A program made the position numbers and the translations under genes. Below the pieces are notes generated by a model. The model ran no database searches, had not been told where the DNA came from, and saw nothing but the letters and a program-made list of their open reading frames with translations. 64,000 nucleotides of DNA from a virus, in UHGV virus genome UHGV-0109738; one strand, given 5' to 3'. Shown one piece after another: positions 41,021 to 46,501 of this stretch (its first letter is position 1; each line of letters opens with the position of its first letter).

Positions 41021-42505
41021 TTAAAACCCTCGCAGGCGCTTAGGTAACATAAGGCCCATTGCCTGTGGCTGGCTTAGTTCGGTGATACCCCATACCATTG
41101 CGTCCATACGGTCAGGGGATTTTTTGGCGGTAGCTGGCACGTATTCCATCATTTGATTTTCCAGCGTATATAGCTCACCAGTGTGTGCCACCCTTCCTTG
41201 TGCATACAGTGCTGATATTGGTTCGGCGCGGGCGAATTTACCTTTGCTTGCGTGCACCTTAACAATGCGGCCTTTGAATCCTGCATTGCGTAGCGTGGCC
41301 TCTGCCATGTCACCGCCCTGGTTGGTTTCGATAACTATCGCGTCAGCTTCATGGATGTCATAAGCGTTCATTGCTGCTTGCGCCCAGTCGTTAGGCGACA
41401 TGCGGCCTGAATAGTCACCGTCTACTGAATACTGTGCGTACTTGCCGCCACCATAAGCGGAACACGCCATGATCCCCGTTTCGTCTGACTCATCAGATGA
41501 TGTTGTCGCAGGGTCAATAGCTATCACAGTGCGGATTTTCTCCTGCGTTATCTGCATCCGGTGCGCGGCGGTAATCATCGCCTCTGTCCACAACGCACCC
41601 TCTTCGTCGAATTTACGCGGGCGCTGCATGTACTGGGCCTCAAATGACCGTCTGTGTGCCTTCAGTCCAGCTTCATGGGCGTCATTGTGCTTTTTAGGCC
41701 ATAGCCAGCCATCTGGCAGGTTATGAGGAATGGGGATAGCGAACTCGTTTTCAGGATACAAATCCCGGTAGTCAACGCTGTTGTCGATTTTCACTGGCAG
41801 GTTCAAGTGATACCACTTTTCACCGCTTCCACCGCGTAGCAGGTAGCCGGACAAATCATCGTAGTGGATGCGCTGCATGATGACGATGACAGGCGTTGTT
41901 TGCACCGCCAGACGTGAAGCAAGCGTGTCGTTGTAGTTGGTGTTTACCTGCTTTCTCACCACGTCAGAGTAAGCGTCAGCGGGTTTTAATGGGTCGTCGA
42001 TGATTAACGCGCCATTAAATCCTGGCTCCATATACCCCGCACGGAACCCTGTAACCTGGCCAAGCGATGACGTTGCATACACGCCGCCACCGTATTCAGT
42101 CCACCACATTGATTTTGAGTTTGCATCGTTGCGGATCCTCATGGGCCACATTGCCTGATATTCAGGCGTACAGATCATGTTTCTTACGGTCGAGGAATTG
42201 AGTAACGCCAGGTTGTTGGAATAGGAGACATGAAGGAATCGTGTGCGGGGATTTATTGCGAGTGACCGCGCCATCATGTTGATAGTTGCGATCATGGTTT
42301 TGCCGTACCCTGGAGGGATGTTAATGATGAGTCGGGTTATCTCACCATTGACAACGCGTTGCAGTGCGTCGCGGATAGCTAAGTGATGGCCTGAGATTAA
42401 CATCTTCGTTCCGTTCGCTTGCTTATAGAAGTAGCGATTGAAAAACAGGCCATCGTTTTCACATTTGGACTGAATAACTCGTTCTTTGATTGTCAGCATA
42501 ATCAC
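41021..42505 (-). CDS. Terminase large subunit
   Basis: 494 aa; Walker A-like IPPGYGKT, Walker B-like LIIDDP, C-terminal nuclease-type acidic residues. Confidence 0.85.
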   Translation of the reverse strand: MIMLTIKERVIQSKCENDGLFFNRYFYKQANGTKMLISGHHLAIRDALQRVVNGEITRLIINIPPGYGKTMIATINMMARSLAINPRTRFLHVSYSNNLALLNSSTVRNMICTPEYQAMWPMRIRNDANSKSMWWTEYGGGVYATSSLGQVTGFRAGYMEPGFNGALIIDDPLKPADAYSDVVRKQVNTNYNDTLASRLAVQTTPVIVIMQRIHYDDLSGYLLRGGSGEKWYHLNLPVKIDNSVDYRDLYPENEFAIPIPHNLPDGWLWPKKHNDAHEAGLKAHRRSFEAQYMQRPRKFDEEGALWTEAMITAAHRMQITQEKIRTVIAIDPATTSSDESDETGIMACSAYGGGKYAQYSVDGDYSGRMSPNDWAQAAMNAYDIHEADAIVIETNQGGDMAEATLRNAGFKGRIVKVHASKGKFARAEPISALYAQGRVAHTGELYTLENQMMEYVPATAKKSPDRMDAMVWGITELSQPQAMGLMLPKRLRGF

Positions 42506-42987
42506 ACCTCATCTTCTACTTCCTGAACGATGCGGGCGATCTCTTCTTTTGTGACTTCTACCTGTACTGGTGCTTCTTCCCTGTTGCCTACGATTTCCTG
42601 CGTAACGCGTTCGCCATACTTACGCGGTTGCAGTTTTGCCAATAGCCATTTACGGGTTTCAATCATCAATTGATGGCGGCGGCATTGGTCTTTATCGGTG
42701 TTCTCCGCTGCGTCCGCTATGTCGATAATCTCATCAGCCAATACCTCAAAACCGATCTCTTTCGCGCGTATGTACATGTCCGAGAACTCTGGCACGTCTC
42801 TGAACCATTTAAGGATTGTTGAACGCGCAGGCATATCAGGCATCTTCGAAATCTTGTTAATACTTTGACCGTCCGCCACCAGCTCACAGATCTCTAATGC
42901 CTTTTCTTCGGTATAACCATGCGGACGGCCCACCTTTTTAGCTGCTGGCTTTTTATCGTCAGCTTTTGCCTTTTTAGTGCGGGCCAT
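42502..42987 (-). CDS. Terminase small subunit
   Basis: 161 aa, basic N-terminus with HTH-like segment; 4-nt overlap with large subunit. Confidence 0.6.
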   Translation of the reverse strand: MARTKKAKADDKKPAAKKVGRPHGYTEEKALEICELVADGQSINKISKMPDMPARSTILKWFRDVPEFSDMYIRAKEIGFEVLADEIIDIADAAENTDKDQCRRHQLMIETRKWLLAKLQPRKYGERVTQEIVGNREEAPVQVEVTKEEIARIVQEVEDEV

Positions 42988-43152
42988 ATTTCACCTCTCA
43001 AAACCATTTGCACAGAATATATAAACACGCAATTAATGTTGCGCAGTATGTTACCGTTTCCAGAAAGTCGAATAGCTCTTTCATTGATACCATCCACTTT
43101 ATTTGACTTGCTTAATTTAGGAAGCGCATAAAATGCGCGTCCAAGCCATAAC

Positions 43153-43221
43153 CTATTGAGTCAGTGCGGTCATGGTAAGAACAATCGCAACAATCAGGAA
43201 AAAGAAATCAAGCCATTTCAT
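43153..43221 (-). CDS. Mini-ORF a (22 aa, single TM): MKWLDFFFLIVAIVLTMTALTQ
   Basis: AGGGGG RBS 7 nt upstream of ATG. Confidence 0.4.
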   Translation of the reverse strand: MKWLDFFFLIVAIVLTMTALTQ

Positions 43222-43238
43222 TTTTAACCCCCTGCGAT

Positions 43239-43310
43239 TCAGTTGACACTTAAAAGCACCGCAACGATGACAATCACTATAATCATGCAAAAGAAGTCTG
43301 CTTCCCTCAT
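43239..43310 (-). CDS. Mini-ORF b (23 aa, single TM): MREADFFCMIIVIVIVAVLLSVN
   Basis: ATGA overlap with mini-ORF c; GAGGG RBS. Confidence 0.4.
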   Translation of the reverse strand: MREADFFCMIIVIVIVAVLLSVN

Positions 43311-43387
43311 CTTTTAAACCCTCGATAAAAATCAACGGCAATAACTGTAATAACAGCCACCAGCAATAGCATTTCGTATGCGTTCAT
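43307..43387 (-). CDS. Mini-ORF c (26 aa, single TM): MNAYEMLLLVAVITVIAVDFYRGFKR
   Basis: ATGA start/stop overlap with mini-ORF d. Confidence 0.4.
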   Translation of the reverse strand: MNAYEMLLLVAVITVIAVDFYRGFKR

Positions 43388-43482
43388 TTGATACTACCCA
43401 TAACAAGGCCGATGATTATGATTATGGCGACAACGCCTAGCATCATTCCGCACATAATCGCCAGTAATTCGAATATATCCAT
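43384..43482 (-). CDS. Mini-ORF d (32 aa, single TM): MDIFELLAIMCGMMLGVVAIIIIIGLVMGSIK
   Basis: AGGTGA RBS 4 nt upstream of ATG. Confidence 0.4.
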   Translation of the reverse strand: MDIFELLAIMCGMMLGVVAIIIIIGLVMGSIK

Positions 43483-43575
43483 GCCGTCACCTATACAACA
43501 TTCTTCCACCAGAAATAGATAATGACGGCTACACCGACCACCAGATGAGATCGTAAATATTCATGGTGAACACCT

Positions 43576-43650
43576 TCAGCTTTCAATGAATATCATGATC
43601 GCCAGCCATACAGCGACGCATAAAGAAAGGATAACGAGTGGGTCAATCAT
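43576..43650 (-). CDS. Mini-ORF e (24 aa, single TM): MIDPLVILSLCVAVWLAIMIFIES
   Basis: GAGGGG RBS; start overlaps the end of mini-ORF f. Confidence 0.4.
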   Translation of the reverse strand: MIDPLVILSLCVAVWLAIMIFIES

Positions 43651-43759
43651 CTTGCCCCTCCACCCAGCGCTTGATCTTTGCGTTTATTAGTGCAACTGCA
43701 ATAAAACCCACCAGATATACAGAAATGCCGATCAATCCGGCAATGATATAATCATCCAT
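43643..43759 (-). CDS. Mini-ORF f (38 aa, single TM): MDDYIIAGLIGISVYLVGFIAVALINAKIKRWVEGQDD
   Basis: GGTGA RBS 8 nt upstream; 4-nt gap after mini-ORF g. Confidence 0.4.
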   Translation of the reverse strand: MDDYIIAGLIGISVYLVGFIAVALINAKIKRWVEGQDD

Positions 43760-43763
43760 AACA

Positions 43764-43832
43764 TTATTCACCAACCAGTAATATTACAGCGGCAGCCATT
43801 CCGATAAACAAACCCAACAGAAAAGTAACCAT
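43764..43832 (-). CDS. Mini-ORF g (22 aa, single TM): MVTFLLGLFIGMAAAVILLVGE
   Basis: GGGGGTGA RBS; ATG 3 nt after stop of gene 43835-44419. Confidence 0.4.
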   Translation of the reverse strand: MVTFLLGLFIGMAAAVILLVGE

Positions 43833-43834
43833 AA

Positions 43835-44419
43835 TCACCCCCGTTTAAAGCTCATTACACGCGGTACAAGCGCTTCTTTTGCTTTAGGCTTACGTTTGCC
43901 TTTCTTCGCTGGTTTTTTCTCTTCTTTCGGCTCCTCTGCCTGTTCAACTGCCTGTTCTGCTGCATCAGTCGCCTTTTCCGCCTGGTCTAATGCCTGCTCT
44001 ACGACTTCAGCCGCCTGCATTGCTGCAACCTGTGCTTCGTTTGATTCTGCCAGGATTGGGAAGAATGCGTCAAAGATGCGGCCTACCATGTAAGCATATG
44101 TCTCGTTTGCTGGGTGAGTTGGATCAGTGGTCGCCACGACGCCTACATCACTTAAAACGTGGAATGTAGTGTGTGCGCATTCATGTACCAGCGTTCCTAA
44201 CTCATTATCGAATACTGCGATCACGTAGAAGTTACCGCCTTTCTCACCCGTGCAGGTTAATGTCAGGCCGCCTGCCAGTTCGAAATCAGGTTCGATCGGA
44301 ATCCCTGCCTTCTCGCAAAATTCATAAAACATGTCGCGGGTCGGGCAGAAGAAAACAGTTGTATGCTCAAAGAGCGGAACTTTGAATTGAGGCAACTTGA
44401 TGCCTTTAGCCTTAGCCAT
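43835..44419 (-). CDS. Hypothetical protein with HExxH metallopeptidase-like motif
   Basis: 194 aa; LVHECAHTTFH motif; Ala/Glu-rich linker and lysine-rich C-terminal tail; between Rz and the mini-ORF array. Confidence 0.45.
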   Translation of the reverse strand: MAKAKGIKLPQFKVPLFEHTTVFFCPTRDMFYEFCEKAGIPIEPDFELAGGLTLTCTGEKGGNFYVIAVFDNELGTLVHECAHTTFHVLSDVGVVATTDPTHPANETYAYMVGRIFDAFFPILAESNEAQVAAMQAAEVVEQALDQAEKATDAAEQAVEQAEEPKEEKKPAKKGKRKPKAKEALVPRVMSFKRG

Positions 44420-44698
44420 CAGAATATTCCTCTATCCTGAAAAATATAACCCCCGCAAAACTGGACACCGCAGGGAGTGAAAACAGCTATAAAACACTAA
44501 AAACGGCGCTGCATGAGTACCGTTTTCAGAATTTTATAAAACTGGATAATGGCGCTTTCTTCTACCCAGGTAGCGCCCTACCTGTTAATGAGGTTGTTTA
44601 CCAGGTATTACGTGTTTTTGACTATTCCGCCGTCGCTCGCGGGAAGGATTGGCCCGGTTATGGCTGGCTGGCAGAAACGGCGACACGTCCACGCGCTG

Positions 44699-45169
44699 TT
44701 ATTCTTTGCGTAAGCACTGCGTTTTGATGTAGTCCTGTAACCCAGTGATCTGAGCGTCTTTCGTTTTTAGTTGTTCTCTGAGGGATAGATAAGCTGATTC
44801 AGCGTCGGGAGTGAGTCTACAGGTGGCTCCATCAATGGCGCTGGCGGATCCGGTGGGGTCAGACACTCGCACGGGCGTTGCGTTGACGCGCAGCCGGATA
44901 GTGCCGTTATCAATACCAGTGCGCAGATCGGCAATGTCAGATCTGATAGCTTTAATTTCATCGTGATACCTCTTATCAAGTTTTGACAGTTCGGCGTTTC
45001 GCTCCTTCATCTGCTGAATAGTATTACTTGCTGTTTTTAGTGCGCCCTGCGTAGTAGTTAGCTCGCTTTGCATTGTGTTTATCACTGACTGGCAATGACT
45101 GAGCGCGGCAACAAGGCCAACAACAATACAAACAACAACGGCGATGATTAACGTCTTCACCTTGTCCAT
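44699..45169 (-). CDS. Spanin, inner-membrane subunit (Rz-like)
   Basis: 156 aa, N-terminal TM then coiled-coil; follows endolysin; contains an embedded +1-frame lipoprotein gene. Confidence 0.7.
44767..44961 (-). CDS. Spanin, outer-membrane lipoprotein subunit (Rz1-like), embedded in Rz
   Basis: [24 protein letters not shown] lipobox followed by Pro-rich sequence; entirely within Rz in another frame. Confidence 0.65.
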   Translation of the reverse strand: MKLKLSDLTLPICALVLITALSGCASTQRPCECLTPPDPPAPLMEPPVDSLPTLNQLIYPSENN

Positions 45170-45648
45170 GTTTCACCCCATTCGCAAACGGCATATTCAA
45201 CCTCGCGGCGGTTAACCAGGCCTTGCCACTTCTTACCGCCAGCGTATACCCAGCGTTTAAGCTGTGCGCACGCTTCTGATTTCTTGCCGTCATTGAGTAG
45301 CTTCAATAAGGTTGATGTTTTGAAATTGGTAGCGCCTACGTTATAGGCGAATGAATAAAGTGCTGCGCGGGTAAAATCTGATATTTCGACTTTAATATAG
45401 GGATCGATCGCTTTTGCGGTCTTGTGTAGATCTTTATTTAACAAAGCATCGCATTCTGATTGCGTGTAAGTCTTGCCAAGCATGATGTCTTTTCCCGTAT
45501 GACCGTGGCAAACAGTCCATACACCAACAACATCACGATAAGGATTGTAATCAACTCCCTCTAATGGCTTAATCATCACCGCCGCAATAGCGATCGCCCC
45601 ACCAGCCGCCGCCGCAACAATCTTGTTTTTCAGCGATTGGCTAATCAT
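45157..45648 (-). CDS. SAR endolysin (phage lysozyme with signal-anchor-release domain)
   Basis: Start at [10 protein letters not shown]; Gly/Ala-rich weakly hydrophobic N-terminus then [28 protein letters not shown] (E-x8-D-x5-T catalytic triad pattern as in phage 21 R). Confidence 0.85.
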
Positions 45649-45649
45649 G

Positions 45650-45850
45650 TTACTTATTCCCCATTCGCGCGTCGTGTTCCTCTTGCGCTCGCTTGTTCTC
45701 CTGTGATTTGAAGTAATAGTTAACGGCAAATGTGCCTACGGTTGATAAGATACCCACAAAGACGGCAATATCATTGATGGTTATCGCGCCGAAAAAAGCA
45801 GTTACGGCCCCAGTCACATACGCGCACGCCTCCCGTATTCTGTCGAACAT
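45650..45850 (-). CDS. Holin (pinholin-like, two TM segments)
   Basis: 66 aa, two hydrophobic segments and charged C-terminus; immediately upstream of the SAR endolysin. Confidence 0.6.
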
Positions 45851-46306
45851 AGATTTTCCTCCAACAAAGCAAAAACCCGGCGCGGGGCCGGGTAGTTATA
45901 GTTTCGCATTGTTAGAGAATATTTTAATCTGTTTGTTTACGACCTACAAATACGGCGTTACGGCTTTCTATATATCAGGCCATTATCAAGCAATGTTTGC
46001 ATATGCCACCGATCCATGTCGCTTAATTCCCAATAAGGAACATCATCAGGTCTTATCATCACCGATTCACCTCTAACCAAATAGGCGATGTTAAATACCT
46101 TATGTAAATAGATGCCATCTTCGATCTCGTTCATAGGTCGCTAACCTTAAACAGTATGCCTTTATCAACGCCACGCTTAATGTCTTCCCTTGTTGTTTTG
46201 AAGAACGGCTCATATTCCCCACCATCGAAGCTGATTGTTACAGTATCGCCGCCCACTATGTAAAAAACGTTCTCCATCAGGTTTACACCATAGATACCGT
46301 CTTCAA

Positions 46307-46501
46307 TCATTTCTTGCGCTCCTTAATAGCTCGCTTGATCTGCACTACCGTAGCATCGAAGAAAGCGAGAAACATCACTACAGGCCATAAAGGAATCTCA
46401 AGGCCACCACGATCGAGATCGTTATATTTGATGAAACAAGACATCAGGATAGCGCCAGCGATATAAAGGAGAAATACAGCAAAGATAAGACATTCAATCA
46501 T
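46307..46501 (-). CDS. Small membrane protein (64 aa)
   Basis: Two hydrophobic helices. Confidence 0.3.
   Translation of the reverse strand: MIECLIFAVFLLYIAGAILMSCFIKYNDLDRGGLEIPLWPVVMFLAFFDATVVQIKRAIKERKK

Follow-up and report, generated by a model that had tools for sequence, protein, structure and literature searches.

A predicted minimal gluzincin between the lysis and terminase genes of a temperate coliphage, and the tiny peptides encoded beside it

The virus genome UHGV-0109738, of which a stretch of 64,000 nucleotides (the window) was analysed here, carries between its Rz/Rz1 spanin genes and an array of very short open reading frames (mini-ORFs) a complete gene for a protein of 194 amino acids (aa), which ends in a TGA stop codon (43835..44419, minus strand). 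The list of open reading frames (ORFs) and the sequence bear out how this protein had first been described, with an HECAH motif at residues 79-83, a stretch rich in Ala and Glu and a Lys-rich tail; the strand had been left unstated. Two questions arise from this arrangement: is the protein a zinc metallopeptidase, and does it process or regulate the peptides encoded next to it, as the original prediction proposed? Motif conservation and structure modelling point with high confidence to a zincin metallopeptidase, and this putative protease is in all likelihood independent of the mini-ORFs. Taken as a whole, the best explanation, which we hold with moderate confidence, is a stand-alone minimal gluzincin that would serve as an accessory cytoplasmic effector protease and would not depend on the array. 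At the level of the window the outcome is mostly corrective, in that the protein is an ordinary family member and a model of a protease paired with its peptide array is unsupported.

Catalytic motif and predicted fold

A lone HExxH sequence says little in itself, since by our estimate roughly 0.5 occurrences are expected by chance in 64 kb; what makes this one significant is its conservation across homologues. An alignment of 69 sequences, 23-65% identical to the query protein, has just four invariant columns, H79, E80, H83 and E106, and P15, G51 and Y110 are conserved in at least 90% of sequences. Among 148 cluster representatives, 145 keep the HExxH, the other three being a spurious repeat protein and two fragments with frameshifts. 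The motif itself (H79 E80 C81 A82 H83; 44171..44185, minus) lies in the first core helix; its Cys varies among homologues (C/A/V/L), and H87 and H102 are conserved within the coliphage subgroup only. E106 (44102..44104, minus) stands 22 residues past H83 in an N-E-T-x-x-Y motif at the start of the second core helix, where conservation and the model mark it as the predicted third zinc ligand (HExxH-x22-E). The spacing HExxH-x22-(N)E is what we take to be the gluzincin arrangement of the M1, M3 and M4 families, and the sequence signature of the window protein is the one that defines gluzincins such as thermolysin (M4), aminopeptidase (M1) and oligopeptidase (M3). We propose that the protein is a stand-alone minimal zinc metallopeptidase of gluzincin type, predicted to be catalytically competent, in which zinc would be held by H79, H83 and E106 and E80 would act as the general base.

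The fold prediction is consistent with this proposal. AlphaFold2, run on the 69-sequence alignment, gave a confident model of the catalytic domain (aa 1-125; 44045..44419, minus), with a predicted local distance difference test (pLDDT) score of 93.7 and a predicted template modelling (pTM) score of 0.87. The model has strands at residues 11-13, 21-25, 51-57 and 63-69, which form a four-stranded sheet, and helices at 28-38, 74-91 and 104-129, the HExxH residues lying inside the second of these and the last beginning with N105-E106. The minimal zincin core that Iyer et al. (2017, PMC5512222) described for the metallopeptidase (MPTase) domains of polyvalent proteins has this topology, with three strands in a sheet, a helix at the N-terminus and two further helices that carry the HExxH and the Glu.

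Comparison with solved structures was less informative: the best neighbour is an M3 gluzincin, matched weakly, a Foldseek search of the PDB gave zero matches, and sequence searches of the PDB with the single protein and with a profile found nothing significant, with only motif-level matches to M35 and myroilysin at E ~1. Among predicted viral structures (BFVD) there are 25 matches at E<1e-3, all of them uncharacterised phage proteins of 100-215 aa, and lower in the list stand a few weaker ones labelled SprT-like or metalloprotease. The fold assignment therefore rests mainly on motif and predicted topology, and a strong structural match is wanting. The original prediction had named its own counter-case, a protein whose predicted fold is no peptidase and whose His and Glu residues are not conserved among homologues; fold prediction and the homologues both came out the other way, and its description of the protein as metallopeptidase-like stands. 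If active, the enzyme would be among the smallest zincin proteases, with a core of ~120 aa.

The gene is real, and its catalytic domain is under strong purifying selection. Across the region the window shares ~90% nucleotide identity with mEp021, mEp044, mEp010, mEp554, mEp515, mEp013 and MagusPhagus, and it belongs with these temperate coliphages to the mEpimmI group. When codons 1-125 are compared with those of six mEp relatives, synonymous divergence (dS) is 0.47-0.82 and nonsynonymous divergence (dN) 0.010-0.066, a dN/dS of 0.02-0.08; in the same comparison the C-terminal part is more weakly constrained (dN/dS 0.07-0.33). The orthologue in mEp021, mEp021_49 (AXN54168), is annotated 'hypothetical protein'.

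A widespread family with the distribution of an accessory gene

The window protein is a new, C-terminally extended member of an already catalogued and uncharacterised phage zincin family, and as such nothing categorically new. Its aa 1-131 match positions 3-124 of the 127-position profile of phrog_1365 at E=4.3e-31, and its distant homologues Orf129, U1G gp90, RSJ2 ORF43 and phCDa gp24 also match this family. Scans of Pfam, NCBIfam and PADLOC returned no family above threshold, and Pfam is without a model for this one. E. coli prophages account for nearly all of the 122 close relatives that a word-indexed search retrieved; a further homologue search with the profile yielded that E. coli set again, with no distant relative annotated in Pfam, and an exhaustive phmmer search with aa 1-130 against 1.84 billion cluster representatives retrieved 159 proteins at E<=1e-3, almost all of 105-140 aa; judged by these representatives, the family is strictly small and single-domain. 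It is carried by the model phages P22 and HK620 and by common prophages of gut coliphages, and the homologue clusters hold hundreds of E. coli sequences. HkcC of HK620 and P22 and Orf129 of L, ST64T and epsilon34 share with the window protein a domain of ~120 aa with the pattern HExxH...NE, in P22 even the same HECAH. Typical members end after the Glu helix, whereas the window protein adds ~70 aa of stalk and polybasic tail.

The genomic settings of the family, collected by tblastn against phage genomes and from annotated regions, differ widely. In ST64T, L and epsilon34, Orf129 follows lysis gene 15 and a DUF2560 gene and precedes a 134-aa ORF that matches a head-decoration family, then terS. 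In HK620, hkcC comes after ejection gene 16 and hkcB, in whose place P22 has sieA. The Autographiviridae RSJ2, Anchaing and Axy09 have the homologue directly after lysozyme or Rz genes, and the N4-like phages U1G and phCDa have it in a cluster that diverges from the terminase end, which in the known layout of the N4 genome is the early end. A metagenomic temperate phage carries it in an early region with ERF, SSB and Rha-ANT genes, and in the outgroup phage encoding P0121, a protein 58% identical to that of the window, the order is holin, lysozyme, Rz, ASCH, zincin, TerS. No partner gene is common to the contexts examined. A gene whose contexts differ in this way between lineages behaves like a mobile accessory gene; one with a core function in lysis or assembly would not be expected to show this pattern.

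Several observations on individual family members were made along the way. P22 (BK000583) contains at 2989-3366 on the plus strand an intact 125-aa HkcC homologue that is absent from the reference annotation and carries HECAH and NETYCYL; it occupies the same place as hkcC in HK620, with sieA and orf59a on either side, and overlaps both the promoter of sieA and the long sieA reading frame on the opposite strand. The P22-like phages ST-32, ST160, UAB_Phi20 and SE1Spa have two diverged paralogues per genome, one of Orf129 type after the lysis genes and one of HkcC type after gene 16 and sieA. Two further homologues have short Cys-rich additions instead of a basic tail, P0135 at its C-terminus (...CPVCSCE...) and P0151 at its N-terminus (...CTCPTGNGSLRWPCPVH...), which may be zinc knuckles.

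What distinguishes the coliphage lineage is the C-terminal part. A helical stalk rich in Ala and Glu (aa ~126-165; 43925..44044, minus) continues the Glu helix in the full-length model, followed by a Lys/Arg-rich tail that is predicted to be disordered (aa ~166-194; 43838..43924, minus) and ends in the conserved ...KGKRKPKAKEALVPRVMSFKRG. The full-length model has an overall pLDDT of 77, with helix 104-161 at 71-91 and the tail below 50. Stalk length differs between relatives by a 14-aa indel, that is two heptads, and also by replacement of whole cassettes; Tandem Repeats Finder detected no repeat within the gene, and the indel is therefore not a simple DNA tandem repeat. Pfam gave a weak Alanine_zipper match on the stalk (E=0.019). 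Within the alignment that also shows the stalk indels (A1), K172, K175, R176, K177, K179, K181, E182, P186 and V188 are invariant in the tail, whose nearly invariant end KGKRKPKAKEALVPRVMSFKRG recurs as ...VPRIARYKRG in the outgroup P0121. Stalk and basic tail are confined to the coliphage lineage and near relatives, and a different basic tail is found in mEp013 and in P0113-type proteins. In mEp013 (1430-1915) an HNH endonuclease gene directly follows the zincin gene with a 14-nt overlap, which coincides with the swapped tail ...KEPPKVEKYIVAWRSRYAMG; tails of the same type are found in the P0113 cluster, with its 108 members from E. coli. The stalk is possibly a coiled coil that would allow oligomerisation, and the most plausible role of the polybasic tail would be to tether or concentrate the enzyme at a polyanionic surface, for instance that of DNA or of the inner membrane.

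The protein has no signal peptide and would thus be made in the cytoplasm. We propose that it is an accessory effector that would cut a protein of the host or of a competing element, and not a morphogenetic or peptide-maturation protease. This assignment to host or competitor is tentative. The family may reasonably be regarded as a candidate for proteolytic host takeover or anti-defence, given that its catalytic core is conserved, that it behaves as an accessory gene and that in N4-like phages it would be expressed early. A bolder version of the idea, which at present we regard as doubtful, is that phrog_1365 is an unrecognised, widespread class of mini-gluzincin effectors that cut a specific host defence or housekeeping protein in P22, HK620, N4-like, T7-like and mEpimmI phages. 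In this version the mEpimmI form would be anchored to DNA or to the inner membrane by its stalk, as a coiled coil, and its basic tail, and might act alongside the tiny membrane peptides co-translated with it. Searches of the literature on hkcC, Orf129 and mEp021_49 and on phage zincin anti-defence proteases found no functional study, and the supplements of the mEpimmI paper have no entry for the zincin gene.

Several points weigh against the effector reading. Catalysis is itself a prediction from sequence and model. The gene lies directly after the lysis cassette in five separate lineages, which could mean a role related to lysis, and in the mEpimmI lineage the conserved 2-nt junction with the first mini-ORF amounts to tight co-expression.

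Competing explanations for tail, position and array

Of the alternatives, the one that survives best, although it is improbable, takes the tail as its starting point: a protease tethered to nucleic acid, akin to SprT/SPRTN or to a solo polyvalent-protein domain, whose tail would bind phage DNA, which would cut DNA-bound proteins and which might be packaged and injected. The tail does resemble histone H1 (KKPAKKGKRKPKAK), the gene abuts the terminase gene in the outgroup, the Cys-rich additions of P0135 and P0151 would fit such a function, and one source names the homologue P0118 in nr a 'PolyVal Metallopeptidase superfamily domain', a third-party label only. Polyvalent-protein metallopeptidase domains have the same minimal core and phage origin and lie near late genes, where they also occur solo (PMC5512222). 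Unlike them, the window family is always solo, with representatives of at most 190 aa and never part of a large multidomain protein; the additional His and Asp by which that study marks out the common phage clade are missing from it, and neither the window protein nor any of the 69 members matches the Pfam MPTase-PolyVal model. Membership in MPTase-PolyVal was rejected on its small single-domain representatives, on the missing Pfam match and on the fact that the protein is not an annotated virion protein in mEp021. Mass spectrometry has been used to map the virion proteins of mEp021, and gp49 is neither annotated nor discussed as one of them; it is called 'hypothetical' and not 'virion structural protein', which counts weakly against its being packaged.

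The SprT side of this comparison fares no better. The DNA-dependent metalloproteases of the SprT-like, SPRTN and Wss1 kind (PF10263) likewise have a zincin core of small size, to which a nucleic-acid-binding appendage, basic or Zn-binding, is sometimes added, and 14 of the 69 members have sub-threshold SprT-like Pfam matches (best E 0.009), none of them the window protein. The original prediction had suggested an SprT-like fold; what was found is a protein without the third His of HExxHx5H, position 89 being an unconserved Leu and the predicted third ligand a Glu, without a Zn ribbon, and with a probability of 4% in hhalign against E. coli SprT (YggI). Basic tails are moreover absent from most family members.

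A role as a lysis accessory, in which a late protease would set the timing of lysis or bring it to completion by cutting a host or phage protein that lies in the cytoplasm or faces the inner membrane, seems distinctly unlikely. It would explain why the gene stands right after the lysis cassette in mEpimmI, ST64T/L, RSJ2, Anchaing and Axy09, which are unrelated, and the cationic tail is reminiscent of some lysis proteins, with a weak match to the holin family phrog_608 (E=0.025). Regions behind lysis genes and genome ends are, however, hot spots for accessory genes, and other members are found in early regions, both N4-like and in the recombination region of the temperate phage, or after ejection genes. 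The protein also lacks a signal peptide, and an SAR-like endolysin with a small holin of two transmembrane (TM) segments (SAR, signal-anchor-release) would be expected to bar a cytoplasmic protein from the periplasm before lysis, given the established biology of pinholins. Action in the periplasm through holin holes was dismissed on the same reasoning.

Very improbable is the relationship first suggested for this locus, in which the tiny hydrophobic peptides encoded just 3' of the protease gene would be matured, degraded or regulated by the protease. The array comprises eight ORFs of 22-38 aa (42998-43832, minus), each essentially one hydrophobic helix, and six of the 22 hydrophobic mini-ORFs on the minus strand of the window sit within a 740-bp stretch of it. 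The first, of 22 aa (MVTFLLGLFIGMAAAVILLVGE; 43764..43832, minus), starts 2 nt past the zincin stop codon (TGA TT ATG), not 3 nt as had been given. This junction measures 2 nt in five of the seven relatives examined, even where the first cassette is a different one, the exceptions being the contig encoding P0118 (1 nt) and mEp013, where the HNH gene is interposed; it suggests translational coupling and speaks for a functional link, as does the idea that the enzyme might be drawn by its polybasic tail to the membrane, the expected site of the peptides. Peptide cassettes such as MIDPLIILSACVAVWLAIMIFIES and MKWLDFFFLIVAIVLTMTALTQ recur in mEp021, mEp044, mEp010, mEp554, mEp013, MagusPhagus and a metagenomic relative, and their number ranges from 5 to 12 against a constant protease.

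Several observations count against such a link. Only mEpimmI phages have the array: in six other contexts (ST64T, P22, HK620, U1G, phCDa and a metagenomic contig) the homologues are not followed by hydrophobic mini-ORFs, and in the nearest outgroup, whose P0121 has the same basic tail, the TerS gene comes 3 nt after the zincin gene, without an array between them. In mEp013 the HNH gene separates protease and peptides, and the peptides have no obvious leader to cleave, with few residues outside the hydrophobic helix. For these reasons, above all the restriction to mEpimmI and the direct junction with TerS in the same-tail outgroup, processing of the array is not supported, and in our view the array was inserted between zincin gene and terS in this lineage, is co-expressed with the protease and shares only its operon. 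An enzyme of the kind that acts on ribosomally synthesized and post-translationally modified peptides (RiPPs) was rejected as well: the HExxH hydroxylase model (TIGR04267, aKG-HExxH) scored 12.6 bits against a cut-off of 40, matching only the HExxH helix, and the mini-ORF linkage, confined to one phage lineage, is not a conserved linkage to precursor peptides.

Just as hard to sustain is a regulatory protease of ImmA/IrrE type that would cleave a repressor of a resident prophage or of the host, although an ImmA-like fold had been among the original suggestions. Peptidase_M78 (PF06114) matches one of the 69 members, at E=0.099, and the predicted fold differs from ImmA/IrrE in its four-stranded sheet. 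The neighbours in the window are Rz/Rz1 and mini-ORFs, and an adjacent Xre-type helix-turn-helix repressor is missing there and in most contexts. HK620 retains hkcC yet has lost mnt and ant, and the family occurs also in strictly lytic N4-like and T7-like phages. Least credible is an incidental HExxH in a non-catalytic, for instance structural or adaptor, protein: a single HExxH can be chance and the similarity to solved peptidases is weak, but the four predicted metal-binding and catalytic residues are the sole invariant positions of the family.

Neighbouring genes and expression signals

On the minus strand the zincin gene is preceded by holin (45650-45850), endolysin (45157-45729) and Rz/Rz1 (44699-45169 and 44767-44979) genes and a 280-nt spacer, and beyond the array it is followed by terS (42502-42987) and the large terminase gene (41021-42505). 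It would be transcribed with the late genes, 3' of the lysis cassette and 5' of the terminase genes. A Shine-Dalgarno-like GAGGA lies 8 nt 5' of the ATG (44428..44432, minus). RNA folding places two terminator-like hairpins, each followed by a U-rich run, in the spacer between Rz and zincin genes (44500-44526 and 44450-44478, minus; z = -2.2 for 44420-44700), and terminators are annotated at the equivalent spot in mEp021 (TERM_6) and mEp013 (T11). A scan for sigma-70 promoters stayed at background level, an Rfam search of 42500-46500 returned nothing relevant, and relatives have a Q-like antiterminator gene upstream. The zincin gene is probably expressed with the late genes by Q-dependent read-through of both hairpins. 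The last predicted stem of the spacer fold also pairs with the GAGGA ribosome-binding site.

The 66-aa holin has two TM segments, and the endolysin has a Gly/Ala-rich, weakly hydrophobic N-terminus typical of SAR endolysins, which suggests a lysis system of the pinholin/SAR type; relatives match Phage_holin_2_3 and Phage_lysozyme. A 36-aa Arg/Lys-rich ORF in another frame (43855-43965) was set aside as a shadow of the Lys-rich tail codons. The contig encoding P0118 has an HNH_3 gene between its lysozyme and Rz genes (4752-5273) and, at 10491-12398, encodes a MuF-like head protein with an intein-splicing domain.
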